Shown piece by piece: positions 1 through 25,507 of a stretch of 26,758 nucleotides of DNA. The notes under the pieces are model-generated. The model had not been told where the DNA came from, searched no databases, and saw nothing but the letters and a program-made list of their open reading frames with translations. Position 1 is the first letter of the stretch. Each line of letters opens with the position of its first letter. Origin of the DNA: Clostridiales bacterium (GTDB taxonomy: Bacteria > Bacillota > Clostridia > Christensenellales > Aristaeellaceae); contig SVGK01000010.1 of the NCBI GenBank assembly GCA_015056395.1, positions 1 through 26,758 of the forward strand, in the 5' to 3' direction. A program made the translations under genes and the position numbers.

Positions 1-426
1 GGCACCCTGATCCACAACATCGAGATCAAGGTCGGCCGCGGCGGCCAGATGGTCCGCTCCGCCGGCACCGCCGCCCAAGTCATGGCCAAGGAGAACGGCA
101 CCGCCCAGATCCGCCTGCCCTCCGGCGAGGTGCGCAAGGTTTCCCTGAACGCCCGCGCCACCATCGGCACCGTGGGCAATTCCGATCACTCCAACGTGCG
201 CGTCGGCAAGGCCGGCCGCAAGCGCCACATGGGCGTTCGCCCGCACGTTCGCGGCGTCGTCATGAACCCTGTGGACCATCCGCACGGCGGCGGCGAAGGC
301 CGTTCCCCGGTCGGCATGCCCGCTCCGATGTCTCCGTGGGGCAAGAAGACGCAGGGCGTCAAGACCCGCAAGCATCGCAAGTATTCCGACAAGCTGATCG
401 TCAACAGAGCTTCCAAGAAGAAGTAA
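1..426 (+). CDS. rplB: 50S ribosomal protein L2, C-terminal portion (5' end lies outside the window)
   Basis: Frame-1 translation from nt 1 reads [23 protein letters not shown]... and continues into ORF 49..426, which has the L2 C-terminal glycine/histidine-rich motif ([19 protein letters not shown]). It is followed by rpsS in the canonical S10-operon order. Confidence 0.93.
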
Positions 427-445: not shown

Positions 446-724
446 ATGAGCAGATCCGTAAAGAAGGGGCCGTACATCCAGCCCGTGCTCCTCAAGCGCG
501 TTCAGGAAATGAACGCCAAGGGCGAGAAGAAGGTCCTGAAGACCTGGTCCCGTTCCTCTACCATTTTCCCGGATTTCATCGGGCACACGGTTGCCGTTCA
601 TGACGGCCGCAAGCACGTTCCGGTCTATGTGACCGAGGATATGGTCGGACACAAGTTCGGCGAGTTTGCCCCCACCCGTACCTTCAGGGGCCACGCCGGA
701 GAAAAGGCGTCGTCCCGCAAGTAA
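446..724 (+). CDS. rpsS: 30S ribosomal protein S19
   Basis: 92-aa product [11 protein letters not shown]...[27 protein letters not shown] is a typical S19. The RBS GAGAGGAG lies upstream. Position is between L2 and L22. Confidence 0.95.
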
Positions 725-8853: not shown

Positions 8854-9627
8854 ATGATCAAGTTAAAGACAGAGGCACAGATCGAAAAGATGCGCGCAGC
8901 GGGAGTGCTGCTGCACAGCGTACTCACCGCCCTGCGCGCGGCGGCCAGGCCCGGCGTGACGACGCTCGAGCTGGACCGCATGGCCGAGGACATGATCCGA
9001 AGCGCCGGCGCGACGCCGTCGTTCAAGGGCTATGCCGGCTTTCCGTATTCGATCTGCGCATCCATCGACGACCAGGTCGTTCATGGCTTTTCGAACGACA
9101 GGCCCCTTTTGCAGGGACAGCTGCTGAGCATAGACTGCGGCTGCAAGCTGGACGGCTGGCAGTCCGACAGCGCGCTCTCCGTGGTGGTCGGCGGCGGCAA
9201 TGCGGAAGCGCAGCGTCTGATCGACATCACGGAACGCTGCTTCTGGCTGGGCGCTGACATGGCGCGCGAGGGCAACCGCTTAGGCGACATCGGGCACGCG
9301 GTGCAGACCTATGCCGAGAGCATGGGCTGCGGCGTGGTGCGCGACTATACCGGACACGGCATAGGGCGCGAGATGCACGAGGATCCCTCCGTGCCGAACT
9401 ACGGCTACGCCGGCCGCGGCCTCAAGCTTCAGAAGGGCATGACGATCGCCATAGAACCCATGATCACACTGGGCACGTGGAGGACGAAAAAGCTCTCCGA
9501 CGGCTGGACGGCCGTCACGGCCGACGGCTCACTGGCGGCGCACTACGAGCACACCGTGCTGGTGACCGACGGCGAGCCCGAGCTGCTGAGCTTCCCCGGC
9601 GCACGCATTTCGGAGGCGCTTCGATGA
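8854..9627 (+). CDS. map: Type I methionine aminopeptidase
   Basis: Pita-bread-fold metal-binding residues are in context (…HGFSNDRPL…IDCG…HGIGREMHEDP…IEPMI…EHTVLVT). It is in the canonical position after adk. Confidence 0.94.
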   Translation: MIKLKTEAQIEKMRAAGVLLHSVLTALRAAARPGVTTLELDRMAEDMIRSAGATPSFKGYAGFPYSICASIDDQVVHGFSNDRPLLQGQLLSIDCGCKLDGWQSDSALSVVVGGGNAEAQRLIDITERCFWLGADMAREGNRLGDIGHAVQTYAESMGCGVVRDYTGHGIGREMHEDPSVPNYGYAGRGLKLQKGMTIAIEPMITLGTWRTKKLSDGWTAVTADGSLAAHYEHTVLVTDGEPELLSFPGARISEALR

Positions 9628-9911
9628 AGATGTATCCGATAGAGCCGGGCAGCGTGGTCCGCTCCACGGCGGGGCGCGACCAGGGCAGGCTGTTCATCGT
9701 GGTGAGCCTGATCGACGAGGATTTTGCCTACGTCGCCAACGGAAAGCTCAGGACGATGGAACACCTGAAGAAGAAGCGCAGGAAGCATCTGAAGCCCACG
9801 GGGCATGTGGTCGGGGCGTTTGTCGAAAAACAGCGACAGGGAGAGCCTGTGCTGGATCATGAAATACGCGCGTGGTTGAAAGAGGAGGAAGAAAAGCTTG
9901 TCCAAGTCTGA
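9624..9911 (+). CDS. Small KOW-domain protein (YbzG-like), conserved between map and infA in Firmicutes
   Basis: The ATG at 9624 overlaps the map stop (ATGA). [29 protein letters not shown]... is KOW-like. The ORF-track frame 9477..9911 has a spurious N-terminal extension. Confidence 0.8.
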
Positions 9912-10119
9912 TGTCATCGAAGTGGATGGCGTTGTCACGGAGTCGTATCCGAACGCCATGTTTGAAGTACAGCTGCCCAACGGGCACAAGGTATTGGCAC
10001 ACGTCTCCGGCAAGATGCGCATGAACTACATACGCATATACCCCGGCGACAAGGTGAAGATAGAGCTCTCGCCCTACGATCTGACCCGCGGCCGGATCAC
10101 CTGGCGTTCCAAGAGCTGA
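9898..10119 (+). CDS. infA: Translation initiation factor IF-1
   Basis: [41 protein letters not shown]...RITWR is a canonical S1-like IF-1. It has a TTG start codon overlapping the end of the preceding gene. Confidence 0.94.
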
Positions 10120-14162: not shown

Positions 14163-15923
14163 ATGAGCAAGTTCTTTATCGAATGCCCGGCCTGTCACCG
14201 CTACAGCCAGGCCTCCACGTCCCTGTTTGCCAGCCGGCGCATACGCTGCGCCTGCGGCTTCACCATCGACGTCAAGGCGGACCGCATCACCACGCGCGTC
14301 TGTCCGTCCTGCGGCAATTCCATCGCTTTCGACCAGGCGAAGGGCGCGACGGCGAAGTGCCCCATATGCAGGGCGCAGCTGCTCACGCCGGAGAGCATGA
14401 ACAGCCTGGTCACGTTCGCGTGCCGCACCTGCGGCTGCACGCTGCAGGCGAACAAGGGCGCGCAGCAGATCACGTGCCCCCTGTGCGACACGGTCAACGA
14501 CGTGCAGGCCGAGGTCAAGCTCGCGGCGCAGCGCGCGCAAGGCACGCCGCAGGTCATACGCTACGAGGGCGACAACATGACGTTCGTCTGGCGGCACCCC
14601 GCGACGGACTTCGTGATGGGCTCGCAGCTGATCGTGCACGAGAGCCAGGAGGCTCTGTTCTTCCGCAACGGCGAGGCGCTGGATTCGTTCCCAGCGGGAC
14701 GCTACACGCTCGAGACCGCGACGCTGCCGCGCATGAATGGCCTGCTGCCGCTGCCTGTGCAGGGACAGCCCTTCCACGCGGAGGTCTTCTTTGTCAACCT
14801 GACCACGCAGATGGGCATCAAATGGGGCACCAACAGCAAGGTCGGACTGTTCGACCCGGCCAGCGGCCTGCATGTGGAGCTGGGCGCGTCCGGCAGCTTC
14901 AACCTGCGCGTGACGGACCCGCGGCGGCTCGTGATCCGCCTGGTCGGCACCACGGACAGGCTGACGCAGGAGCAGGTGTTCGGGCACGACGGCGGCTACT
15001 TCCGCACGCTGGTCATGACGAAGGTCAAGGCGAACCTCGCGCGCGTGATCAGGGAGAACCGCATATCCGTGCTGGAGCTGGACCAGCACATCGACGTGAT
15101 CGGCGAGGCGCTGCGCACGCAGATCAACGCGGAGTTAGAGGAATACGGCATGACCATGCCTGAGTTCTACGTCGCCAACATACTGACGCCGGACGACGAC
15201 CCGAACTTCAGGCGCATGAAGCAGCAGCACGCGGAGCTCTACCTGCGCACGCGCGAGGAGGAGATCCGTAAGGCCGAGGCGGAGGCGGCGTTCGAGCGCA
15301 AGGCGGTCGAGGCGCAGACGCAGGCGCGCATGAAGGTGATCGGCGCGCAGGGCGAAGCCGACGCCATGCGCATACAGGCGCAGGCCCAGGCGGACGCCTA
15401 CCGCATGCAGGCGGAGGCGGAGGCGCAGGAGATGCGCATGAAGGGCTACACCTACCAGCAGGAGACGACGCGCCAGGTCGCCACGGAGGCGGTCAAAAAC
15501 GGCGGCGCGGGCGGCTTGGCCGGCGACGTGACGGGCGTGCTGGGTGGCGCGATGCAGCTGGGCCTCGGCCTGGGCGCGGCCGGCAGCGTGATCGGCATGA
15601 CGAAGGACGCGCTGGGCGCGATGAACGCGGCCGTGCCGCAGGCGCCCGCCGCGACGGACGACGGCTGGACGTGCGAGGGCTGCGGCTGCACGGGCAACAC
15701 GACGAACTTCTGCCCGAACTGCGGGCGGCGGCGGCCCGAGGCAGGCTGGACGTGCCCGGGCTGCGGGCAGGCGGGCATCACGACGAACTTCTGTCCGAAC
15801 TGCGGGAGGCGACGGCCCGAGGCGGGCTGGACGTGTCCCGGCTGCGGGCTCACGGGCATCACGACGAACTTCTGTCCGAACTGCGGCGCCAAGAAGGGTG
15901 AGAAGGGAGATGTCGAGGGATGA
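14163..15923 (+). CDS. SPFH/Band-7 (YdjI-like, Band_7_1) domain protein fused to multiple zinc ribbons
   Basis: RBS GAAGGAGAG at 14148-14156, then ATG at 14163; the ORF-track start at 13650 is an unsupported extension. The N-terminus has three CxxC...CxxC pairs. The central segment (IRYEGDNMTFVWRHPATDFVMGSQLIVHESQEALFFRNGEALDSFPAGRYTLETATLP...FHAEVFFVNLTTQMGIKWGT) resembles B. subtilis YdjI-type SPFH. An A/E/Q-rich coiled coil, a Gly-rich linker, and three GWTCPGCG..TTNFCPNCG zinc-ribbon repeats follow. Confidence 0.8.
   Translation: MSKFFIECPACHRYSQASTSLFASRRIRCACGFTIDVKADRITTRVCPSCGNSIAFDQAKGATAKCPICRAQLLTPESMNSLVTFACRTCGCTLQANKGAQQITCPLCDTVNDVQAEVKLAAQRAQGTPQVIRYEGDNMTFVWRHPATDFVMGSQLIVHESQEALFFRNGEALDSFPAGRYTLETATLPRMNGLLPLPVQGQPFHAEVFFVNLTTQMGIKWGTNSKVGLFDPASGLHVELGASGSFNLRVTDPRRLVIRLVGTTDRLTQEQVFGHDGGYFRTLVMTKVKANLARVIRENRISVLELDQHIDVIGEALRTQINAELEEYGMTMPEFYVANILTPDDDPNFRRMKQQHAELYLRTREEEIRKAEAEAAFERKAVEAQTQARMKVIGAQGEADAMRIQAQAQADAYRMQAEAEAQEMRMKGYTYQQETTRQVATEAVKNGGAGGLAGDVTGVLGGAMQLGLGLGAAGSVIGMTKDALGAMNAAVPQAPAATDDGWTCEGCGCTGNTTNFCPNCGRRRPEAGWTCPGCGQAGITTNFCPNCGRRRPEAGWTCPGCGLTGITTNFCPNCGAKKGEKGDVEG
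15657..15899 (+). repeat. Three near-perfect 81-bp (27-aa) tandem repeats inside the SPFH gene, each encoding one C4 zinc ribbon
   Basis: GGCTGGACGTG recurs at 15663, 15744 and 15825 with an exact 81-nt period. The encoded units are GWTC[EP]GCGxxGxTTNFCPNCGRRRPEA. Confidence 0.9.
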
Positions 15924-16579
15924 AGAACGGTAAGGGCCATTTCCTTGCGCTTTGGGCCATCGCGCTGGCGCTGTTCGTGGTGCTGGCGCTGGCGATACCT
16001 TTTGCGCGGACGCCGGTGTACTGGATCGGCTTTTGCGCGACGCTTTTGATGTTCGCCGTAGTGACGGCGGCATTCATGCGCGCGTTCAGGGACGGGCGGT
16101 CGCTCGAGAGCGCGCTGCTGGGCTGGCCCATATTCAAGTGCGGCGCACTGGCGCTCGGCGCGCAGCTGATCGCGGGCTTTGCGCTGATGGCGCTGGCGCG
16201 CGCGCTCGGCGTCACCGCGGCTGTGGTGATCGAGATCGTGCTGTTCGGCTGCGCGGCGGCGGTGCTGGTCGCGCGGGACGCGGCGCGCGCCGCTGTCGAG
16301 CAGACGGAGGCGCGCGTGCGGGATGACACCGGCGCGTGGAAGGCACTGCGCGCGCAGGCGAGCGCGTTCGCGGCGGCGGCCGGCAGCGACGCGGCGCGCA
16401 AACTCGCCGACGACATACGCTTTGCGGACCCGAGGCCCACGGACATGGACGGCGATATCGCGCAGGCCGTGGGCGCGCTGGGCGCGGACGCGGCGGACGA
16501 GGATATCGAGCAGGTCAGAAAGATGGTCGGAAGGAGAAACGCGCTGGCGAAGGCGGGGAAGAAGGAAATGCAGAATTGA
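15920..16579 (+). CDS. Small membrane protein (about 4 TM helices, Ala-rich cytoplasmic C-terminus), translationally coupled to the SPFH gene
   Basis: ATGA overlap with the upstream stop (15920-15923). Hydrophobic segments are HFLALWAIALALFVVLALAI, VYWIGFCATLLMFAVVTAAF, GALALGAQLIAGFALMALA and AAVVIEIVLFGCAAAVLV. Confidence 0.75.
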   Translation: MKNGKGHFLALWAIALALFVVLALAIPFARTPVYWIGFCATLLMFAVVTAAFMRAFRDGRSLESALLGWPIFKCGALALGAQLIAGFALMALARALGVTAAVVIEIVLFGCAAAVLVARDAARAAVEQTEARVRDDTGAWKALRAQASAFAAAAGSDAARKLADDIRFADPRPTDMDGDIAQAVGALGADAADEDIEQVRKMVGRRNALAKAGKKEMQN

Positions 16580-16613
16580 TAATTCAGAATTCAGAATTAA
16601 GAATTAAGAATGG
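16580..16613. repeat. AT-rich heptamer microsatellite (AATTCAG x2, AATTAAG x2) directly after the stop codon
   Basis: taATTCAGAATTCAGAATTAAGAATTAAGAATgg contains two EcoRI sites. It is an AT island in an otherwise >65% GC context. Confidence 0.7.
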
Positions 16614-16664
16614 ATAGCCCGGAGACCCGAACGTGCGGGTCCCCCGCAATGCCCCGAACGACCT

Positions 16665-17655
16665 CGTAGCGGTGGCGTCTACGCCGCCATATCCCTCGCC
16701 ATTCCCGCCAGGGAATGCGAAACGACCGAAGGACCTCATCCGGCCCTCACGGGCCACCTTCCCCAAAGGGCAACGCTGTCAACTTTGAACAAGGACATAA
16801 CAAATCATAGATATACGTCGTCCAGCGGGAATGGCGGCTGATAGCCGCCGCTACGGATCACATGATCTGCAAATGTAACCGCATAAACGGCACGGGATCG
16901 TCTTAAGTTGACAGCGTTGCCCCAAAGGGGAAGGCAAGGTCCGCCATTCAATATACGATCCGCCGTCGTACCTCGCCCATCGGTCCCGAGGACGATGATC
17001 AACAGACAAAGAGACGATCGGCCCACGAATGTACCCATATCACAGCTCGGCACGCCCGATCCTCGCCCGGAGCGGCGTCCTGTCGACGCCGTCTCCGCGA
17101 CAAAACCTCGAGCCGTCCGCTCCTATCCGACCTTGATCCCCGAGCTGACGTGGCCCGTTGGACCGCGTACAGCACAGCCACCGCGCCGAAGGCGCGGCGC
17201 GAAGCGTCCTTGAGGGTCCTCATGCTGTCTGCTAAACTGAAGCACACGGCGGCGTGATAAGGTTTCGTTTCCAACCTCTCACCCGTCGCCGTGGCCTCAT
17301 ACAAGCAGACAGCAGGAGGTTCATCAAGGATGGCGGCCGGACGAGGTATCCGTCCCCCCCAACGACCCCGTAGCGGCGGCTATCAGCCGCCACATCCCTC
17401 GCCATTCCCAACAGACAAGCCGAAACGACCGAAGGACCTCATCCGGCCCTCACGGGCCACCTTCCCCAAAGGGCAACGCTGTCAACTTAAGGCGATCCCG
17501 TTTTGGTTGTGCAGCTACATCTGCAGATCGTGTGATCCGTAGCGGCGGCTATCAGCCGCCATTTCCGACGCACAACGTATACCCGTGATTTGTTATGGTC
17601 TTGTTAAAAGTTGACAGCGTTGCCCCAGAGGGGAAGGCAAGGTCCGTCATTTGAA
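16665..17655. mobile_element. Non-coding MITE-like composite repeat: ~115-bp inverted arms (16827-16943 and 17455-17566) around a ~500-bp core, with extra partial copies on both sides
   Basis: The left arm and the reverse complement of the right arm align at ~85% (GGAATGGCGGCTGATAGCCGCCGCTACGGATCACAYGATCTGCA...CTTAAGTTGACAGCGTTGCCC...). Direct repeats 16665-16786 and 17369-17488 share an identical 66-bp block at 16721-16786 and 17424-17488. There is a further fragment at 17609-17652. The only ORFs here are spurious GC-frame ORFs. Confidence 0.6.
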
Positions 17656-17791
17656 TACAAGATCGACCGCACCCCCCAGAATCACGGCCAGCGTTCGATC
17701 TCCGGCCAATAATTCCGAAACACCCGGAGGGTGTCTAGCGAAGCGTCGATTCCGAATTACCCCATCCCCCCACGACCAAAGGAGCAACACC

Positions 17792-20700
17792 ATGATCATC
17801 TTCAAATGCAAATCCTGCGGCGGCGACCTGTCCTTCGAGCCGGGCGCGAGCGTCGCGGAATGCCCCTACTGCGGCGTGAAGCAGACGCTGCCGAAGCTGG
17901 ACGACGACAAGCGCGCGAACCTCTACGACCGCGCCAACCACTTCCGCCGCCAGAACGAGTACGACAAGGCCATGGCGATCTACGAGCAGATACTGTCCGA
18001 GGACCGCACGGACGCCGAGGCGTACTGGTCGCTGGTGCTGTGCCGCTACGGCATAGAGTACGTCGAGGACCCCGTTACGCGCAAGCGCGTGCCCACGGTC
18101 AACCGCGCGCAGTACGCCTCCGTGCTGGCGGACGACGACTACAAGTCGGCGCTTCAATACGCGGACCCTGCGCAGCGCGTGCTCTATGAATCGGAGGCGG
18201 AGGCCATCGCGGAGATACAGCGCGGCATATTGGACATCTCGCGCAAGGAGCAGCCCTTCGACGTGTTCATCTGCTACAAGGAGACGGACGCGAACGGCCG
18301 CCGCACGCCGGACAGCGTGCTGGCGACGGACCTGTACCACCAGCTGACGAAGGAGGGCTTCCGGGTATTCTTCTCGCGCATCACGCTGGAGGACAAGATC
18401 GGCACGGCGTACGAGCCGTACATATTCGCGGCGCTGAACAGCGCGAAGGTGATGGTGGTGCTGGGCACGAAGCCGGAGTACTTCAACGCGGTGTGGGTGA
18501 AGAACGAGTGGAGCCGCTACCTTGCGCTGATACGCGCGGGCGCGGAGAAGGTGCTGGTGCCCGCGTACCGCGACATGGACCCCTATGACCTGCCGGAGGA
18601 GTTCGCGCACCTGCAGGCGCAGGACATGGGCAAGCTGGGCTTCATGCAGGACCTGATACGCGGCATCAAGAAGCTGACCGCGAAGGACGATCCGAAGCCC
18701 GCGCGGCCCGCAGCGCAGACCGTGGTCGCGGGCCCCGGCGCGAACATAGAGAACCTGATGAAGCGCGCGCGGCTCTTCATGGAGGACGGCAACTGGATGA
18801 GCGCCACGGAGTACCTGGACAAGGTGCTGGACGAGAATGCCGAGTACGCGCCCGCCTACGCGGGCAAGGTGCAGGTCTCGCTGCGCATGAAGCGGGAGGC
18901 CGAACTGGCCGGGAGCCTCACGGACTACGAAGGCGACCCCGACTGGCAGAGGGCGCTGCGCTTTGCCGCGCCCGAACAGCGGAAGGTTTACGAGGGGTAC
19001 GCGGCGCAGGCGGCGGAGGCGCGGGAGGAGAAGCGCAAGGAAGACATCTATGCCGGAGCGGCCGCCATGCTCGCAAAGGCCGATACGCCCGCCGCGTGCC
19101 GCGCGGCGAAGGCGGAATTTGCGAAGATCCCGCTGCACAGGGACGCGGGCGCGAAGGTGCGCGAGTGCGAGGAGAAGGCGAGGCGCATCGAATACGACGC
19201 GCTCCTCACCAGATACAAGGACGTGGCCAGGGACTATAACAGCGTCTCAAAGGCCGAGAGGCTTGAGGCGCTTGCGGCGGAGTTCGATGCGTTCAGGGGC
19301 ACCGACATGCCCGGGCGCTGCCGCGCGGAGGCGGAGCAGTGCCGCGCGGCGCTCTATGACGAGGCCGCCGAGGCCATGCGGAAGAGCGCGCAGGCACAGC
19401 AATTCGAAAAGGCGGCGGAGCTGTTCAGACGGCTGGGCGCCTACAGGGACGCGCAGGCGCAGGCGCGAAAGTGCTCGGACAGCGCGGCGGAAGTCAAACG
19501 CGCCGACGAGCTGCGCGCCGCGCGTGAACGCGAGGAGCAGGAGCGCAGGATAGAGAAGGAGCGCGCCAGACAGAAGAGGAACAGGGTGCTCCTGTCGTTG
19601 CTGGTGCTCGTGCTGGCGGCGGGCGCGCTGGCCTATCTGTACGTGCTGAAGCCCATGATGGCCTATGACAAGGCGGTTGGGGCGATGGAGGCGGGAAACT
19701 ACGACGAGGCGACGGCGCTGTTTGAAGAGATGGGAGACTACAGGGACGCCGCTGTACAGGCGCAGGAGAGCCAATACAGGAAGGGTCTGTCGTTGATGAA
19801 CAGCGGAAAATACGATGCGGCTGTAGAGGTGTTCAACAGTATCGGCAGTTACGGCGATAGTTCCGCAAAGGCAAAACAGGCACAGGCAGACAAATTGTTT
19901 GATGCGGGATATTACGCCGAAGCGTATGCGGCATACATCGCATTGGATTCGGAGTATCAAACACATAAAGACGATTACGAGCAGATGTACGTCGATGCAT
20001 CGAGGCTGTTTGCGGATGGTGATTATGATGGCGCCAGCATGGCGTTTAATTCGATCGCGGGATACAAGGATTCAACAACACAGGCAAAGGAGAGCCAATA
20101 CCAGAAGGGCCTGTCGTTGATGAACAGTGGGCAATATGATGCAGCTGTAGAGGTATTCAACAGTATCAGCAGTTACGGCGATAGTTCTACGAGAGCAAAA
20201 CAGGCACAGGCAGATGAATTGTTTGCTGCGGGGAATTACGCCGAAGCATATATGGTTTACGCCGCATTGGATACGGGATATCAAACACACAAAGACGATT
20301 ACGAGCAAATGTACGTCGATGCATCGAAGCAATTTGCGGATGGTGATTATGACGGCGCCAGCAAGGCGTTTAATTCAATTGCAGGATACAAGGATTCAGT
20401 AACACAGGCAAAGGAGAGCCAGTACCAGAAGGGCCTGTCGTTGATGAACAGCGGGCAATATCATGCAGCTGCGGTGGCATTCAAGAGCCTTGGCAGTTAC
20501 AACGACGCCGCGACACAAGCGCAGGAGAGCCAGTACCAGAATGGCCTGTCGTTGATGAAAATTGGGCAATACGATGCGGCTGTGGAGGTATTCAAGAGCC
20601 TTGGCAGTTACAACGACGCTGCGACACAGGCGCAGGAGAGCCAATATCGGAAAGGCATGTCGTTGATGGAGAGCGAGGAGTATGATGCGGCTACGGAGGT

Positions 20701-21484
20701 GTTCGATGGCCTCAGTAATTACAACGACGCCGCGACAAAAGCGCAGGAGAGCCAGTACCTGAAGGCGGCGGCGCTGAACACAGCGGAGAATTACGATGAA
20801 GCTTATCTGGTCTATGCGTCCATAGCCGGCTATAAGGATGTTGACAGCATCGTCAAAAACGACGGTAATATTTCAGCAGCAGCCTGGCGCGCGCAGTTAT
20901 ACGTCGGCAATACGGTGACCTTCGGCGCGTACGACCAGGACGGCGATACCTCAAACGGCGCGGAGGCCATCGAATGGATCGTGCTGGCGAACGACGGCAA
21001 GACGGCGACGCTGATTAGCAGATACGGTCTGGACGCGAAGCCCTACAACACTGAACAAGAATATGTGACCTGGGAGACATGCACGCTGCGGAAATGGCTG
21101 AACGGCGATTTCCTGAACGCGGCCTTTTCGGCGGACGAGAGGGCGAAGCTTGAAACGGTCAAGGTCACGGCGGACAGGAATCCCAAGAATTTTATCGATC
21201 CCGGCAACGACACGCAGGACAAGGTCTTCCTGCTGTCCATAGACGAGGCGAACAAGTATTTCAGCTCTGATTCGGACCGCATGTGCAAGCCCACGAAGAC
21301 GGCAGTCAAGAATGGAGCAAGCACGAACAGCTCGGGTGCGTGCTGGTGGTGGCTGCGGTCGCCCGGCTACTATCCTAGCCTCGTCGCATACGTCCGCGAC
21401 GACGGTTCGGTCTACTACGACGGCTGCGGTGTCTACAACGGCGATCTCGCTGTTCGGCCGGTCGTGGTGCTGCGGCTTTCATAG
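17792..21484 (+). CDS. Large single-pass membrane protein (1230 aa): N-terminal zinc ribbon, TPR-like region, TIR domain, helical repeat region, TM helix, ~12 degenerate 37-38-aa extracytoplasmic repeats, DUF6273-like C-terminal domain
   Basis: RBS AAAGGAG at 17778-17784 and ATG at 17792 (MIIFKCKSCGGDLSFEPGASVAECPYCG); the ORF-track start at 17651 is an unsupported extension. The TIR region at ~18254-18680 reads QPFDVFICYKETD...EGFRVFFS...VMVVLGTKPEYFNAVWVKNEWSRYLAL, with the conserved W-x3-E at 18494-18508. The TM helix RVLLSLLVLVLAAGALAYLYVL lies at ~19585-19650. Repeats fit the pattern G.Y.DA..QA.ESQY.KG. The C-terminus (TVTFGAYDQDGD...IEWIVLANDGKTATLISRYGLD...VTWETCTLRKWLN...KVFLLSIDEA...ACWWWLRSPG...AVRPVVVL) matches my recollection of DUF6273. 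Confidence 0.8.
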   Translation: MIIFKCKSCGGDLSFEPGASVAECPYCGVKQTLPKLDDDKRANLYDRANHFRRQNEYDKAMAIYEQILSEDRTDAEAYWSLVLCRYGIEYVEDPVTRKRVPTVNRAQYASVLADDDYKSALQYADPAQRVLYESEAEAIAEIQRGILDISRKEQPFDVFICYKETDANGRRTPDSVLATDLYHQLTKEGFRVFFSRITLEDKIGTAYEPYIFAALNSAKVMVVLGTKPEYFNAVWVKNEWSRYLALIRAGAEKVLVPAYRDMDPYDLPEEFAHLQAQDMGKLGFMQDLIRGIKKLTAKDDPKPARPAAQTVVAGPGANIENLMKRARLFMEDGNWMSATEYLDKVLDENAEYAPAYAGKVQVSLRMKREAELAGSLTDYEGDPDWQRALRFAAPEQRKVYEGYAAQAAEAREEKRKEDIYAGAAAMLAKADTPAACRAAKAEFAKIPLHRDAGAKVRECEEKARRIEYDALLTRYKDVARDYNSVSKAERLEALAAEFDAFRGTDMPGRCRAEAEQCRAALYDEAAEAMRKSAQAQQFEKAAELFRRLGAYRDAQAQARKCSDSAAEVKRADELRAAREREEQERRIEKERARQKRNRVLLSLLVLVLAAGALAYLYVLKPMMAYDKAVGAMEAGNYDEATALFEEMGDYRDAAVQAQESQYRKGLSLMNSGKYDAAVEVFNSIGSYGDSSAKAKQAQADKLFDAGYYAEAYAAYIALDSEYQTHKDDYEQMYVDASRLFADGDYDGASMAFNSIAGYKDSTTQAKESQYQKGLSLMNSGQYDAAVEVFNSISSYGDSSTRAKQAQADELFAAGNYAEAYMVYAALDTGYQTHKDDYEQMYVDASKQFADGDYDGASKAFNSIAGYKDSVTQAKESQYQKGLSLMNSGQYHAAAVAFKSLGSYNDAATQAQESQYQNGLSLMKIGQYDAAVEVFKSLGSYNDAATQAQESQYRKGMSLMESEEYDAATEVFDGLSNYNDAATKAQESQYLKAAALNTAENYDEAYLVYASIAGYKDVDSIVKNDGNISAAAWRAQLYVGNTVTFGAYDQDGDTSNGAEAIEWIVLANDGKTATLISRYGLDAKPYNTEQEYVTWETCTLRKWLNGDFLNAAFSADERAKLETVKVTADRNPKNFIDPGNDTQDKVFLLSIDEANKYFSSDSDRMCKPTKTAVKNGASTNSSGACWWWLRSPGYYPSLVAYVRDDGSVYYDGCGVYNGDLAVRPVVVLRLS
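19766..20413 (+). repeat. Two tandem 324-bp (108-aa) intragenic direct repeats (~88% identity) within the extracytoplasmic repeat region of the TIR protein gene
   Basis: GAGAGCCAATAC recurs at 19766, 20090 and 20414 with an exact 324-nt spacing. This stretch (~19690-20830) has visibly lower GC (~50%) than the 5' half of the gene (~70%). Confidence 0.85.
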
Positions 21485-21607: not shown

Positions 21608-22492
21608 ATGAACGGAAGACCAGGCATCCTCTTTCTCGGCAACGGCATCAACCGACTGTTCAATGACGATCCGTGGGACAAGATGATCCGCGACCAGCTC
21701 GCCCTGTCGGGCCATCGCTACACGTGGGAACAGATCAGGAACATACCGCCCACGATGCAGATCGTACTTGCGACGAACGATCAGGTCGACGCCCGCCTCA
21801 AGCAGATCGCAAAGGAGCTGGAACAACAGCGCATACAGGACGAACGCGCCGCTTTCCTGCGCAGGCTCGCCGGTATGGATGTCGACTGCGTAATGACGGC
21901 GAATTATTCTCTCGAGATCGAAAAGGCATTCGGGCTGAAGGAAAGCTGCGCCTCCTACAGGCGGCGCCTGAACAGGACCATCGAAGCAAACGGCCTGCGC
22001 GACGATTTTCGTCTGTACCAATATTATCCCCTCGAGCGGGCGGACGGAAGGACGATGCCGCTTTGGCACGTGCACGGCGACATCGCGAAGCCTCGCTCCA
22101 TGATCATGGGCCATTACTACTACGCAAGGCATCTGCGCGAGATACAGGACCGCGTCGGCGTTATGATGCGCGTCGTTCGGGGCTGTGAACGGGCCGGCTC
22201 GACGTTCCATCCGCAAAGCTGGGTCGATGCGTTTCTGATAAGCGACGTGTTCATGCTCGGCTTTGGGCTGTATCTGTGTGAGTCCGATTTGTGGTGGCTG
22301 CTCTGCTGCAAGAAGCGCAACTTCCCCGATACGAAGGTGTTCTTCTACGGCGAGGCGACGAATGATGTCCGGCTGCTGCTGGAGGCCTATGGCGGCGAAA
22401 CGCAGGACGAGATCAGCCGGATCGGAGAAGACGGCTATATGCGCTTTTATGAAAGGGCGATCGCGGATATCGAACGAAAGCTGGAACATTAG
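21608..22492 (+). CDS. Stand-alone SIR2-like (SIR2_2 / DSR-ThsA-type sirtuin fold) protein, 294 aa, no additional sensor domain
   Basis: The N-terminal ILFLGNGINRLFNDDPWDKMI fits the SIR2_2 consensus lFlGAGxS...PxW..L. VMTANYSLEIEKA fits TTNYDxLlE (catalytic Asn retained). LWHVHGDIAKPRSMIMGHYYY fits iyKlHGs...lvlt.edY (catalytic His retained). DVFMLGFGLYLCESDLWWLL fits llfiGYSl.D. RBS AAAGAGGTG lies upstream. The gene is 124 bp downstream of, and co-directional with, the TIR gene. Confidence 0.65.
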   Translation: MNGRPGILFLGNGINRLFNDDPWDKMIRDQLALSGHRYTWEQIRNIPPTMQIVLATNDQVDARLKQIAKELEQQRIQDERAAFLRRLAGMDVDCVMTANYSLEIEKAFGLKESCASYRRRLNRTIEANGLRDDFRLYQYYPLERADGRTMPLWHVHGDIAKPRSMIMGHYYYARHLREIQDRVGVMMRVVRGCERAGSTFHPQSWVDAFLISDVFMLGFGLYLCESDLWWLLCCKKRNFPDTKVFFYGEATNDVRLLLEAYGGETQDEISRIGEDGYMRFYERAIADIERKLEH

Positions 22493-22574: not shown

Positions 22575-23545
22575 ACCACCGTAGGGACGCCCCATGGGGC
22601 GTCCGCGTGCCCGATCCCGGCACGCACCGCGCAACGTCTTTACGAACCGCATCCCGTAGGGACGCCATTCATGGCGTCCGCCGCGCGTGAGCGCACCGTT
22701 ATCCGTTTCCCCGCAGGGCGCGTTTTCCCCGCGATCCGCCATTGCGGACACACGCAGGGGGAACGTGGCGGCGTAGACGCCGCCGCTACGGATGTTGTTA
22801 TATCACTTGAAGGATGGCGGACAAGGCGCGGCAAGCAACGCTCCTGCGGCGACACATCGCCGCCATTCCGTACACCGACCGTCCTGTCGCCCACGCCGCA
22901 CAGAGCATGACCCTCCGTAGGGACGCCCCATGGGGCGTCCGCGTGCCCGATCCCGGCACGCACTGCGCAACGTCTATACGAACCACATCCCGTAGGGGCG
23001 CCATCCATGGCGCCCGCGCCCTCATCCCGGCATGAACCGCGCAACATCCACACGAAACCGCATCCCGTAGGGACGCCATTCATGGCGTCCGCCTGCGCGT
23101 GAGCGCACCGTTATCCGTTGCCCTACAGGACGCATATCCCCCGCGATCTGCCATCATGAACACGGGGCACGTGGCGGCGCAGACGCCGCCGCTACGGGTG
23201 TTGTTATATATCACCTAACGATGGGGGCGGATGGGGCGCGGCAAGCGACGACCCTGCGGCGACACATCGCCGCCATTCCGTACACCGACCGCCCTGTCGC
23301 CCGCGCCGCACAGAGCATGACCCTCCGTAGGGACGCCCCATGGGGCGTCCGCGTGCCCGATCCCGGCACGCACTGCGCAACGTCTATACGAACCACATCC
23401 CGTAGGGGCGCCATCCATGGCGCCCGCCCGCGCGTAAGCGCACCGTTATCCGTGGCCTCCCAAGGCGCATATCCCCCGCGATCCGTCATCACGAGCGCGG
23501 GGGAACGTGGCGGCGCAGACGCCGCCGCTACGGGTGGTGTTCTTG
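22575..23545. repeat. Three tandem non-coding units (~330, ~420, ~230 bp), each with a perfect 20-bp palindrome GGACGCCCCATGGGGCGTCC, a second palindrome GGRCGCCATYCATGGCGYCC ~75 bp later, and a GTGGCGGCG-yAGA-CGCCGCCGCTACGG hairpin
   Basis: Palindrome A occurs at 22585, 22919 and 23339. Palindrome B or variants occur at 22660, 22995, 23080 and 23413. The CGCCGCCGCTACGG hairpin occurs at 22773-22800, 23171-23198 and 23507-23535. Sequence between the palindromes is itself repeated, so these are not CRISPR spacers. Confidence 0.8.
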
Positions 23546-23603
23546 GACCACCTTTCGCATTTGCGAGCAACGAGTGGTGGATGAGGGCGCAGCATTTTAC
23601 ATG

Positions 23604-23645
23604 AGGGCCTGTTCCCTTCGCGAGAGGGAACGGGCCCTTTTCTTA
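23604..23645 (+). terminator. Stem-loop GGGCCUGUUCCCU-ucgcgag-AGGGAACGGGCCC followed by TTTTCTTAT; terminator-like, first of two near-identical copies
   Basis: 13-bp stem with one G-U pair plus a T-tract on the + strand. It lies immediately 3' of the minus-strand SWIM gene stop (23648), so it is probably bidirectional. The second copy is at 24097-24140. Confidence 0.55.
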
Positions 23646-23647
23646 TG

Positions 23648-23983
23648 TCATTTGCCGAGCACGGTTTCCGCAAACCTGTCGCGGCAGCGCTTTTCAAGCT
23701 CTTTTTCCTGCTGCTTTTTGTAGGCGATGTATTCAAGTACGGCGTTTTTGTCGATGACGCCGCATTCGAGCATGAGGCGGGCGATGTGCTTGCACGGGGC
23801 GTCCTTCTTCTTTCCCCTGATCTGGAAATCGGGGCAGTCGCATTCTTCGAGCGTCGCGTGGTAGATGTCGCCGTTGGAGCCGACGAACACGGCGGAGGGC
23901 ACGCCGGTTTCGATCGACTGCACATTCACGTCCAAGGCGCGAATAGCGGTCTTGTCGTCGAGGTTCCTGTAAGAAATTGCCAT
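23648..23983 (-). CDS. Small SWIM zinc-finger protein (111 aa)
   Basis: CDCPDFQIRGKKKDAPCKHIARL matches the SWIM CxCxnCxH signature. RBS AAAGGAAG lies 6 nt before the ATG at 23983. GC is intermediate. Confidence 0.7.
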   Translation of the reverse strand: MAISYRNLDDKTAIRALDVNVQSIETGVPSAVFVGSNGDIYHATLEECDCPDFQIRGKKKDAPCKHIARLMLECGVIDKNAVLEYIAYKKQQEKELEKRCRDRFAETVLGK

Positions 23984-24096
23984 GGGGATGCACTTCCTTT
24001 CTGGTCGATGCGGTTATGAGGTGCATATCAGCTTTCGAACGGTGATGTATAATAGAAATGCAAATCGGACAAGTGGTGTTGGCTGATTTTGCATGT

Positions 24097-24140
24097 GGGC
24101 CTGTTCCCTTCGCGAGAGGGAACGGGCCTTCTTATTTCTT
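24097..24140 (+). terminator. Second copy of the GGGCCTGTTCCCTTCGCGAGAGGGAACGGGCC stem-loop plus TTCTTATTTCTT, abutting the stop of the minus-strand secreted-protein gene
   Basis: Identical 32-bp hairpin and similar flank (ATTTTRCATGWG upstream) to the copy at 23604. Confidence 0.5.
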
Positions 24141-24689
24141 GGTCGGGGCAACAACAAGCAAATAACTTTCGATGTATTCGGGGTTCCAGATGTAATAGGT
24201 GGCATAGCGGCCAATGTGATAGGGGATACGCGCGCCGGGCGTCAAGATGGATCCTGCATTTCTGAAAACATTCATAGTCTTCTCATAGAACCCTTTTGAA
24301 TCGGACATTATGGACAAAACCTGATCATGCGATATATTCGGGAAACTTGTGTACTCAAGCGCAGAATACAGGGCCATGAGCTTGAAGGCGTCTTCAACAG
24401 ACAAGTCGTCAGTGGATATGTTGACGTTCAACGGAAAATCTACAGACAATGTAGCGAAAGATGAAGCATCGTACTGAATCGTAATCATGTCATAGCCCAT
24501 CGCGGAAGTGGCATCGTTCACATCGGCAAAAACTGGGTCAGCTTTGAACGGATAGCCATACAGCGAACACCATCCAGCATATGTGGCTGCAATCCTTGAA
24601 GGCGTATCAAAGCCGGACGAAGCATCTGCGAGAGCGAAACCGGACAATATGAGTGCGAGCAAGAGCAGTATAACAACAAGTCTTTTCAT
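24132..24689 (-). CDS. Secreted hypothetical protein with N-terminal signal peptide (185 aa), lower-GC gene
   Basis: ATG at 24689 preceded by GGAGGTG with a 7-nt spacer. MKRLVVILLLLALILSGFALADAS is a signal peptide. The ORF-track start at 24734 lacks an RBS. GC is ~45-50% versus >65% for flanking DNA. Confidence 0.7.
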   Translation of the reverse strand: MKRLVVILLLLALILSGFALADASSGFDTPSRIAATYAGWCSLYGYPFKADPVFADVNDATSAMGYDMITIQYDASSFATLSVDFPLNVNISTDDLSVEDAFKLMALYSALEYTSFPNISHDQVLSIMSDSKGFYEKTMNVFRNAGSILTPGARIPYHIGRYATYYIWNPEYIESYLLVVAPTKK

Positions 24690-24747
24690 GTGAAACACCT
24701 CCATTAGGTCCATATTCCGTGACGGCACGTTCATGGATTCAGGATAA

Positions 24748-25131
24748 CTATGCCGTTATGGACGCGCCATCTTCCTTTTGCATGTCCGGGTTGCCTGCGA
24801 AGGCGCGGGCTGTGTTCAGGAGGGTGGTTTGGGCGTCGTGGTTCAGGGAACGGAACAGGGAAAGAAGCTCAGATTCCTGTTCTGTAAGCGGAACGGATAA
24901 TTCATATTTTGGGGGTTCAGAGTAGAATTCAGCGATGCTGTTGATTCCATAGATCTCACACAGGCGAAAGAGCATATCAGCGTCCGGCTGGCCCCGGCCA
25001 TGCTCCCAGCCCGATACGGTCTTATCGCTTTTACCGATCATTTCGCCAACTTCTCTTGCTGTCAAGCCTGCCATTATTCGGAAATCATGCAGCTTGGCGG
25101 CGAGGGCTTTTCTGATTTCTTGTTCTTTCAC
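24748..25131 (-). CDS. XRE-family (Cro/CI-type) helix-turn-helix transcriptional regulator, 127 aa
   Basis: GTG start at 25131 preceded by GAGGTGA. The HTH reads LTAREVGEMIGKSDKTVSGWEHGRGQPDADMLFRLCEIY, and there is a C-terminal extension. Confidence 0.85.
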   Translation of the reverse strand: MKEQEIRKALAAKLHDFRIMAGLTAREVGEMIGKSDKTVSGWEHGRGQPDADMLFRLCEIYGINSIAEFYSEPPKYELSVPLTEQESELLSLFRSLNHDAQTTLLNTARAFAGNPDMQKEDGASITA

Positions 25132-25150
25132 GGAATCTCACCTCAAAAGA

Positions 25151-25179
25151 AGTATACAACCATTTTAGCTATATTGCAA
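25151..25179 (-). promoter_or_regulatory. Sigma-70-type promoter for the minus-strand XRE regulator (-35 TTGCAA, 17-nt spacer, -10 TATACT)
   Basis: Reverse complement of 25151-25179 reads TTGCAAtatagctaaaatggttgTATACT. Located ~20 nt upstream of the RBS. Confidence 0.55.
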
Positions 25180-25219
25180 GACAAATCCTTAAATAATGAG
25201 AATTAATTGATAAAATGGC

Positions 25220-25248
25220 TTGACAGTCTATGATTTTAAGAGTATTAT
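25220..25248 (+). promoter_or_regulatory. Divergent sigma-70 promoter (-35 TTGACA 25220-25225, 17-nt spacer, -10 TATTAT 25243-25248) flanked by three TTAAGAG/CTCTTAA operator-like repeats
   Basis: Consensus -35 with near-consensus -10. TTAAGAG recurs at 25236-25242 and 25271-25277, and an inverted CTCTTAA at 25262-25268 brackets the -10. Confidence 0.65.
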
Positions 25249-25291
25249 ATATCCACGCTCTTAAAATTTAAGAGATTGAGAGGTGGTTAAT

Positions 25292-25507
25292 GTGTATCAC
25301 ATCAAAGATGTCGCTACTGTAGTTGAGGAAAGACGCAGTGAATTTGGTATGACGGTTCGCGCATTGTCTCAAAAGAGCGGCGTCAGCGAAGGCGCTTTGT
25401 ATAGGATCCTTGGCGGCCATTGAAAGATGACCGCATCGGAACTGCTGTCGCTCTCGGAGGTATTGCATTTGACGTTCGATGACTATCGATCTGAAGAGGC
25501 GGTGTGA
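25292..25507 (+). pseudogene. Small XRE-family HTH gene interrupted by an in-frame TGA (25421-25423); Cro-like partner of the divergent regulator
   Basis: GTG at 25292 after RBS AGAGGTGG. Translation is MYHIKDVATVVEERRSEFGMTVRALSQKSGVSEGALYRILGGH-*-KMTASELLSLSEVLHLTFDDYRSEEAV*. Both halves together make one canonical HTH_XRE domain in a single frame. Confidence 0.55.

Follow-up and report, generated by a model that had tools for sequence, protein, structure and literature searches.

A step in synonymous codon composition coincides with an old repeat duplication in the predicted ectodomain of a clostridial TIR gene

Hypervariable surface loci of low GC content, such as O-antigen and capsule clusters, combine a recombining surface module that falls below the GC content of the host with conserved, host-like flanks that act as anchors. 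In bacterial conflict systems, C-type-lectin "antigen sensors" diversified by diversity-generating retroelements (DGRs) are fused to effectors (TIR, CHAT, STAND NTPases) (PMC10907252; PMC7159879). Earlier studies describe the domain DUF6273 as resembling C-type lectins and, in gut phages, as a target of DGRs (PMC10743442, PMC11792537, 10.1101/2024.10.15.618418). Here we analyze a TIR gene at positions 17792–21484 of a 26,758-nucleotide (nt) stretch, the window, which is an entire contig (SVGK01000010.1) of NCBI's "MAG: Clostridiales bacterium". In one reading frame the gene encodes, in order, a Zn-ribbon/TPR/TIR_2 module, a cytoplasmic helical region, a transmembrane (TM) helix, TPR-like repeats and a C-terminal DUF6273 domain, and we infer that its product is a type II single-pass membrane protein. 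A literature search found no paper describing a membrane architecture of TIR with DUF6273. Our preferred reading, to which we give a probability of about 0.55, is that the gene is a recombinational mosaic in which a host-like TIR half is joined to an ectodomain of repeat modules with a separate history, and that the low G+C content at third codon positions (GC3) of the ectodomain reflects a persistent regime.

The ectodomain is built from repeats of two kinds. Tandem Repeats Finder (TRF) reports a period of 324 nt at 19756–20500 (2.3 copies, 86% matches, 0% indels, score 1112), and the repeat matches itself in BLAST at E = 3e-134. Each 324-nt unit is an in-frame triple of hairpins, A+B+C, of 37+34+37 amino acids (aa), or 108 codons. 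The two copies stand at an exact spacing of 324 nt, as a preliminary description of the sequence had proposed, and at 86.4% nucleotide and 83% aa identity they are slightly less alike than the ~88% given there. That description also called the duplication recent, which proved wrong. By the Nei-Gojobori method the copies differ by 0.47 synonymous substitutions per site (Ks) and 0.088 nonsynonymous substitutions per site (Ka), with a Ka/Ks of 0.19. From the Ks we conclude that the duplication is old, and from the Ka/Ks that purifying selection has maintained both ABC copies. At third positions, 15 sites have G or C in copy 1 and A or T in copy 2 and 6 have the reverse, a difference that is not significant (binomial p = 0.078).

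A third repeat start had been noted at 20414. A start does exist there, but it does not open a third 324-nt copy; it belongs to A3, the first unit of a separate array of 111-nt A-type units (TRF period 111 at 20412–20763, 3.2 copies, 82%). A3 is A2-like at 7/8 informative sites over offsets 0–59 and A4-like at 16/17 over offsets 65–109 (Fisher p = 0.001). By this pattern of sites, A3 is a crossover scar at ~20467–20473 that joins the ABC-type block to the array of single A units.

The base composition of the gene changes where its sequence type changes. In 200-nt windows, GC content is 0.60–0.71 over 17800–19700, falls to 0.465–0.495 over 19800–20500, and then recovers only to 0.53–0.60 up to the stop at 21484. 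The profile is clearly not uniform and the reported drop in the repeat block stands, although the earlier figure of ~70% for the 5' half was slightly high (mean ~0.66). Along the gene, GC3 passes from 0.85–0.98 (aa 1–600) to 0.43–0.61 and then to 0.63–0.81, and GC1 and GC2 are flat. The discontinuity that coincides with the repeat block is therefore genuine, and it sits almost entirely at third codon positions, in the choice of synonymous codons. When Met and Trp codons are left out of the calculation (GC3s), the value is 0.908 for aa 1–619, 0.510 for the duplicated ABC block (ABCx2), 0.694 for repeats A3–A6 and 0.757 for the C-terminal 210 aa, compared with 0.869 for nine neighboring host genes. 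The difference between the N-terminal part and ABCx2 is highly significant (Fisher p = 2e-32), and the remaining ectodomain is also under the host GC3 (Fisher p = 2e-7 and 5e-5). Between the N-terminal part and the ABC block, codons ending in G or C fall from 96/99 to 16/35 for Ala and from 41/44 to 4/23 for Asp, and the codon tables of individual amino acids shift for Ala, Asp, Gly, Val, Thr and Phe. Amino-acid composition was considered as a source of the drop and rejected: host codon usage predicts a GC3 of 0.857 for ABCx2, which has 0.510. In a maximum-likelihood (ML) model with two breakpoints, GC3 changes at codon 672 (nt 19805) and again at codon 874 (nt 20411), being 0.90, 0.50 and 0.74 in the three segments.

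This trough is not peculiar to the window. We measured GC3 in 56 complete family genes from different species, taking the host background from flanking genes. The N-terminal 300 codons exceeded the part after the TM helix in 54 of the 56, and the latter lay 0.124 below background on average (51/56 negative), with the N-terminal module at +0.03 before correction. Figures corrected for amino-acid composition cover the 51 genes with a detectable TM helix. In these loci, observed minus expected GC3 was +0.04 for the N-terminal 300 codons (slope on host GC3 0.84), -0.05 for the cytoplasmic linker (slope 0.76) and -0.124 for the post-TM ectodomain (slope 0.51; 44/51 negative, Wilcoxon p = 2e-8). The ectodomain deficit widens with host GC3, from -0.03 where the background is below 0.4 to -0.21 where it is above 0.7. 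The nearest relatives, P0004 (locus L104) and P0008 (locus L105), are from high-GC hosts and have the same trough. We conclude that low GC3 is a systematic property of the ectodomain-coding DNA of this family rather than a peculiarity of one locus. The suggestion that the domain had been recombined in from a lower-GC donor loses ground here, as an anomaly shared by 44/51 loci leaves room for readings other than a single import, one of which may be better.

The family itself is very large: it has at least 8000 protein matches, and species-representative genomes of many Clostridia contain at least 565 of its loci. Its members range from 807 to 2145 aa and carry 0–9 ABC-type units per protein; the stalk combines the 108-aa super-repeat (A+B+C), which is family-wide, with single A units. 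Across the 120 best matches the N-terminal 300 aa are 54–100% identical (at least 66% in ~100 of them) and the rest of the protein 20–68%, with the cytoplasmic region at aa 301–599 being 24–47% identical to relatives. Whole units come and go between these proteins. Exact 108-aa indels separate proteins at 81–95% identity (P0015/P0021, P0013/P0034, and two in P0005/P0009), and exact 37-aa indels separate others at 68–94% identity (P0015/P0024, P0013/P0016, P0013/P0003, and two in P0004/P0008). Additionally, loci L102 and L103 differ by one 111-nt unit at 96–99% DNA identity across the gene. These sequence comparisons demonstrate unit-wise turnover by unequal recombination for the family, and because of the A3 scar we infer it for the window gene as well. 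P0004, the closest full-length relative, has one ABC copy and four A units, and its ABC copy is 56% and 59% identical to the two copies of the query. Because P0004 is equally related to both, the ABC duplication is, on this comparison, lineage-specific.

Recombination in the family also extends to the whole C-terminal part. In more than 100 pairs of proteins the N-terminal 300 aa are at least 93% identical but the last 200 aa are less than 60% identical or have no detectable match; P0018/P0114, for example, are 100% identical at the N-terminus versus 42% at the C-terminus, and P0005/P0006 are 99.7% versus 44%. The closest case to the window is contig L100 (P0072, 1–4144), which matches 17451–18673 at 97.7% DNA identity, a segment that comprises 341 nt of upstream sequence and the first 882 nt of the gene. 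Beyond the match there is no similarity to the window; GC3 in L100 goes from ~0.9 to ~0.3, and a gene for an IS200-type Y1 transposase follows. The pattern suggests that, at one and the same locus, the C-terminal two-thirds has been exchanged. Loci L102 and L103 are 95.5–98.7% identical where they align, which is over two upstream genes and the TIR gene to aa ~1612; their third upstream gene does not align, and the DUF6273 domain and everything downstream are unrelated. Immediately downstream of its gene (encoding P0016), L103 has bAvd at 9553–9951 and a template repeat (TR) at 10001–10112 that matches the variable region (VR) at 9220–9331 at the gene's C-terminus, with the mismatches of the aligned core at TR adenines. 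To judge from this TR/VR alignment, the homologous WWLRSPG...VRP scaffold in L103 carries the signature of a DGR. The 3.4 kb downstream showed no reverse transcriptase. The idea that the ectodomain is a swappable, diversifying recognition module holds across the family, in the C-terminal replacements and in the L103 DGR.

Three further features of the family were observed. In P0040–43, P0058, P0067, P0074, P0078–79, P0081 and P0087, RCC1_2 (PF13540) and PF25390 replace the DUF6273 head on the same TIR/repeat chassis. Locus L104 (118–5691) contains tandem paralogues of 747 aa and 1103 aa with an N-terminal aa identity of only 57%, and L105 (457–9564) contains a second Band_7_1/TIR/DUF6273 set in which TIR and DUF6273 are split into separate genes. 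The tandem paralogues in L104 and L105 offer intragenomic recombination partners.

In this lineage, then, the ABC unit was duplicated once, long ago, evidently by unequal crossing-over between A units, a crossover within A3 joins the ABC-type block to the A4–A6/DUF6273 part, and the GC3 levels (0.91, 0.51 and 0.69–0.76) track the boundaries between sequence types. Under the mosaic reading, homology anchors would be provided by the first 900 nt of the gene, which are conserved, and by the A-type repeats. The pieces that encode the ectodomain would have a history apart from that of the host-like 5' two-thirds and would probably come from a lower-GC source. The low GC3 itself would express a long-running regime, through recurrent replacement or turnover of a hypervariable module, through exclusion from the forces that raise host GC3, or through both. 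Such a regime accounts better than one recent import for an ectodomain that falls short of host GC3 throughout the family.

Several observations weigh against this reading. A lower-GC donor had been proposed, and none was found in proteins, metagenome contigs, phages or plasmids. A search of 5.8 billion proteins with the repeat block alone gave nothing above 49% identity; a metagenome contig scan with the whole ectodomain reached 52% at best, confined to the DUF6273 part; tblastn against phages gave ectodomain matches of only 24–37% aa identity; and blastn against plasmids gave no ectodomain match. In all the databases searched there is no closer ectodomain relative, the best match being at 48–59% aa identity. 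The 5' GC3 step at codon 672 falls inside A1, where no sequence chimera is detectable, and the repeats show no polymorphism among the lineage's six near-clonal contigs. L100, for its part, is one short metagenome contig that may be a chimeric assembly. The receptor function of the protein (NADase activity, ligand and topology) is predicted only. Finally, the deficit is one-sided, with the ectodomain regression crossing identity near GC3 0.27 as compared with a mean host GC3 of ~0.5, and the nearest relatives from high-GC hosts share the trough despite saturated divergence. Because the crossing lies far below mean host GC3, the pattern is not a simple regression toward a shared gene pool, and imports explain the one-sided deficit and the shared trough no better than an actively maintained bias does.

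The strongest alternative starts from the same facts. In it there was no import; the ectodomain evolved in place, and throughout the family a regime tied to this position keeps its GC3 low. Alleles that have diverged too far for recombination may escape GC-biased gene conversion and drift to an AT-biased mutational equilibrium, and relaxed or different codon selection on the exported part is a further candidate. The one-sidedness of the deficit and its growth with host GC3 speak for this alternative, and the gradient from the N-terminal 300 codons through the linker to the ectodomain parallels falling conservation. P0004 and P0008 show the trough with ectodomains only 48–66% identical to that of the window, and the failure to find a donor also counts in its favor. 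On the other hand, the steps are sharp, and the 3' GC3 break lies no more than 4 nt from the ABC end and ~60 nt upstream of the crossover scar. The equally divergent region at aa 301–599 keeps a host-like GC3 here, and abrupt C-terminal replacement is seen directly in near-identical loci. Evolution in place is possible, and we consider it clearly less probable than the mosaic.

A programmed mechanism at this locus, either gene conversion from silent cassettes of the pilE or vls type or a DGR rewriting the repeat or lectin region, is largely excluded and, in our judgment, very improbable. The DGR of L103 sits on a homologous DUF6273 C-terminus, and the window gene retains the corresponding scaffold (CWWWLRSPG...AVRPVVVL). 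However, within the 26.8-kb contig nothing outside the gene matches 19649–20851, which means no silent cassettes of the pilE/pilS or vlsE type; the last 300 nt of the gene have no repeat there, and the contig has no reverse transcriptase motif, Avd or template repeat. A DGR would also hit ~100 nt of the lectin domain, not the repeat block. Furthermore, the gene is identical in six assemblies save for 1–22 substitutions in its first ~120 nt on two contigs.

These six independent metagenome assemblies, whose contigs are near-clonal, also bear on copy number. They come from the JGI metagenomes 3300029305, 3300031555, 3300018427, 3300018430 and 3300028242 and from the sample of the MAG. The exact protein is found on 5 JGI (Joint Genome Institute) contigs from four samples, with a 99% variant in a fifth sample. 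The DNA of the gene is identical in L002–L004; L001 has 1 single-nucleotide difference (~gene nt 122), and L101 has 22 substitutions at gene nt 7–119, so that all differences cluster in the first ~120 nt (window 17798–17912; L101 41–160; L001 10122). The L101 cluster, which lies within 160 nt of the contig end, may reflect gene conversion from a paralogue. The ABC copy number is two in all six contigs. Thus the proposal that the repeat number evolves by unequal recombination stands for the family, where turnover is unit-wise, and finds a scar in this gene, but within the lineage the count is invariant in 6/6 near-clonal contigs. Relatives at 92–93% in SecY represent sister species. The databases hold no moderately diverged orthologue (the next full-length relative, P0004, is 54% identical), and the metagenome scan did not return even the identical contigs and is uninformative on copy number among strains. 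An assembly artefact, in which a repeat was collapsed or expanded or reads of two organisms were joined into a chimera, might be feared in a metagenome-assembled contig with repeats, which are classic misassembly sites, and beside an intergenic 410-nt repeat that does vary between assemblies, but it too is largely excluded and is the least credible explanation of all: six assemblies from different samples have the same two-copy structure and repeat-block sequence, the ABC copies differ at 13.6% of sites and are therefore resolved by short reads, the frame is open through 1230 codons, and the structural model described below is confident throughout.

Table 1. Features of the TIR gene and its neighborhood in the window (positions in nt of the 26,758-nt contig).
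Feature	Positions	Strand	Amino acids	GC3	Basis or remark
Band_7_1/SPFH protein with C-terminal double zinc ribbon	14163–15923	+			Pfam
219-aa protein	15920–16579	+	219 aa		conserved upstream gene
TIR gene, whole	17792–21484	+	1–1230 (1230 codons)		open reading frame (ORF); ATG at 17792 with AAAGGAG upstream
CxxC...CxxC zinc ribbon opening the protein	~17792–17896	+			sequence
Conserved N-terminal module	17792–18691	+	1–300	0.93 (host-like)	identity to relatives
Single N-terminal TPR		+	44–73		Pfam
TIR_2 (PF13676)	18263–18631	+	158–280		Pfam, 43.1 bits vs cut-off 28
Cytoplasmic Ala/Glu/Arg-rich helical (TPR-like) region	18692–19588	+	301–599	0.88	little conserved in family
TM helix (LLSLLVLVLAAGALAYLYVL)	19589–19648	+	600–619		read from sequence; only one hydrophobic helix
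R0, first, divergent 37-aa extracellular repeat	19649–19759	+	620–656	0.76–0.78	
ABC copy 1 (A1, B1, C1)	19760–20083	+	657–764	0.68/0.44/0.57	
Lowest-GC3 block	19805–20410	+		0.50	ML two-breakpoint model; 3' edge no more than 4 nt from end of ABC copy 2
ABC copy 2 (A2, B2, C2)	20084–20407	+	765–872	0.57/0.41/0.46	
A3, chimeric A unit	20408–20518	+	873–983 (with A4 and A5)		opens 111-nt A-type array
A4, A5, degenerate A6	20519–20851	+	A6, 984–1020	0.70	111-nt A-type array; DUF6273 follows A6
DUF6273 (PF19789)	21008–21472	+	1073–1227	~0.76	Pfam, 98.1 bits vs cut-off 23.5
294-aa gene, weak SIR2-like similarity	21608–22492	+	294 aa	0.76	GC3 like 3' part of TIR gene
SWIM zinc-finger protein	23648–23983	-			low-GC island
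200-aa protein without Pfam match	24132–24734	-	200 aa	0.54	low-GC island
HTH_3 regulator	24748–25131	-			low-GC island

The domains of the protein are listed in Table 1. In NADase TIRs, the conserved Glu of the WxxxE motif is catalytic. The best PDB sequence match of the TIR segment is the TLR15/TLR2 TIR (7ylf), and the Glu of its WVKNEW motif aligns with the conserved Glu of WCQYEL in that structure. The cytoplasmic Zn-ribbon/TPR/TIR module is presumably an NAD-consuming or signaling effector. Because a strongly basic stretch (RARQKRNR) precedes the TM helix on its N-terminal side, the positive-inside rule predicts an N-in/C-out topology, with the TIR domain inside and the repeats and lectin head outside.

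In Pfam, the ectodomain has many weak matches to TPR-type models (TPR_6, TPR_19, ANAPC3). An AlphaFold2 model of aa 620–1230, built from 24 aligned sequences, has a mean predicted local distance difference test score (pLDDT) of 93.4 and consists of 24 helices in 12 pairs (pLDDT >90) followed by a beta/alpha domain (residues 420–611 of the model). Foldseek matches the model to the TPR superhelices of P58IPK, APC/C, OGT and consensus TPR proteins with a probability of 1.0. Among PDB structures, Foldseek ranks 9qa6 first; this is the T. ramosa IgA peptidase, which has a DUF6273 as its N-terminal domain. Taken together, the model points to ~11 TPR-like helical hairpins of 37 aa that form an extracellular stalk, and to a DUF6273 head at its end, which would be C-type-lectin-like by analogy with the described domain (PMC10743442, 10.1101/2024.10.15.618418).

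Upstream of the TIR gene lie the Band_7_1/SPFH gene and the gene for the 219-aa protein. Of the related loci searched, 63 have a Band_7_1 homologue, and in L102 and L103 the order is Band_7_1, a ~215-aa gene, a third gene and the TIR gene. The Band_7_1/SPFH gene has its own 81-nt tandem repeat at 15663–15886 (2.8 copies, 88% identical), from which repeated CPxCG zinc-ribbon motifs (Pfam DZR) are encoded. Between the 219-aa and TIR genes is a gap of 1.2 kb (16580–17791) without a convincing ORF. L102 and L103 carry a gene of 203–235 aa in this slot, and no homologue of it was found in the gap. The gap contains two palindromic elements of ~266 nt (16683–16948 and 17386–17651) that are 93–95% identical and have self-complementary arms of 155 nt; they share a CCGTAGCGGCGGC...GCCGCC hairpin with the region downstream of the locus. 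The last 341 nt of the gap are conserved at 97.7% in L100.

Downstream of the TIR gene is the 294-aa gene, whose matches are sub-threshold (SIR2_2, 23.4 bits vs a cut-off of 24.5; a weak LmuA match at E = 0.0016). In L030 and L046, homologues of it at 26–27% identity immediately follow TIR family genes. Its position next to the TIR gene may represent a TIR + SIR2-like pairing. We considered Thoeris (TIR ThsB with SIR2 ThsA) and other catalogued defense systems and rejected them, as all model matches were below threshold: the NCBIfam model ThcB4 scored 28.6 bits vs 220, and PADLOC gave only PDC-S66 at E = 0.006. An Rfam scan of the whole window gave no match.

Beyond the 294-aa gene, an intergenic 410-nt tandem repeat at 22614–23427 (and 22579–23533) has 2 copies that are 89% identical. 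It is full of hairpins resembling repetitive extragenic palindromes, of the forms CCGTAGGGACGCC-N3-5-GGCGTCC and CCGTAGCGGCGGC-N5-GCCGCC, in ~11 copies on both strands. Its copy number varies by assembly: L001 has one unit fewer and L004 seems to run into a further unit. The contigs L002, L003 and L101 end in or just before this region. A second low-GC island follows at 23600–25400 (GC 0.47–0.52) with three genes (Table 1), and is probably foreign or mobile DNA adjoining the locus.

As to function, we tentatively propose that the family are bacterial "Toll-like" transmembrane receptors, a view we hold with less confidence than the mosaic origin of the gene. In such a receptor the TPR solenoid and lectin head would sense an external ligand, with phage particles, neighboring cells and host glycans as candidates, and would signal to the TIR domain together with the SPFH/Band_7_1 partner. 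Recombination would exchange the head, repeat turnover would change its size and, in some members, a DGR would mutagenize it. The GC3 step might then record balancing or diversifying selection that has long acted on the sensor half, with exclusion from GC-biased gene conversion as one part of it.

Our findings point to a huge, uncharacterized family of TIR proteins that cross the membrane once and occur in gut and rumen Clostridia. The family couples a conserved intracellular TIR domain to an outer part that is resized in repeat units, replaced between near-identical strains and sometimes targeted by a DGR. Its family-wide, one-sided deficit, which scales with host GC, is a natural dataset for asking whether surface loci become AT-rich by import or by escaping recombination-linked GC enrichment.

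Compared with the DGR-diversified lectin sensors, the family has the same variable, lectin-like C-terminal domain on an N-terminal effector such as TIR, and L103 adds Avd and a TR/VR pair. The family differs in having no NTPase switch, a single TM helix that would put the sensor outside, and a TPR-like stalk; its partner is SPFH/Band_7_1 rather than the MoxR/vWA pair, its hosts are unicellular gut Clostridia, and the window locus itself is without a DGR. The phage DUF6273 receptor-binding proteins (tentaclins and Mtd-like DGR targets; PMC10743442, PMC11792537) share the Pfam domain and a variable C-terminal region, but the window protein is a cellular membrane protein with a TIR domain, and the phage homologues, at 24–37% identity, are no donor.

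The likeness to animal Toll-like receptors lies in a repeat solenoid outside the cell, a single TM helix and a TIR domain in the cytoplasm. Here, however, the TIR domain is N-terminal (an inverted, type II arrangement), the repeats are TPR-like rather than leucine-rich, and a lectin-like head is added. We regard the resemblance as an analogy, there being no evidence for common descent of the whole architecture.

Unequal crossing-over in repeat recognition proteins, such as the TPR, WD and ANK repeats of fungal NLR/HET proteins and bacterial surface proteins with tandem repeats inside the gene, likewise yields units arranged head to tail in frame, a chimeric unit at the boundary and indels that span whole units. 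Fungal NLR repeats are typically near-identical and positively selected, whereas the window copies are old and under purifying selection, and copy-number polymorphism is absent within the lineage of the window gene. In contrast to O-antigen and capsule clusters, the discontinuity described here lies inside one reading frame and recurs across dozens of hosts of very different GC content. Repeat turnover and mosaicism in this family are nevertheless mechanisms of known kinds, namely unequal crossing-over and mosaic recombination in a variable surface module.

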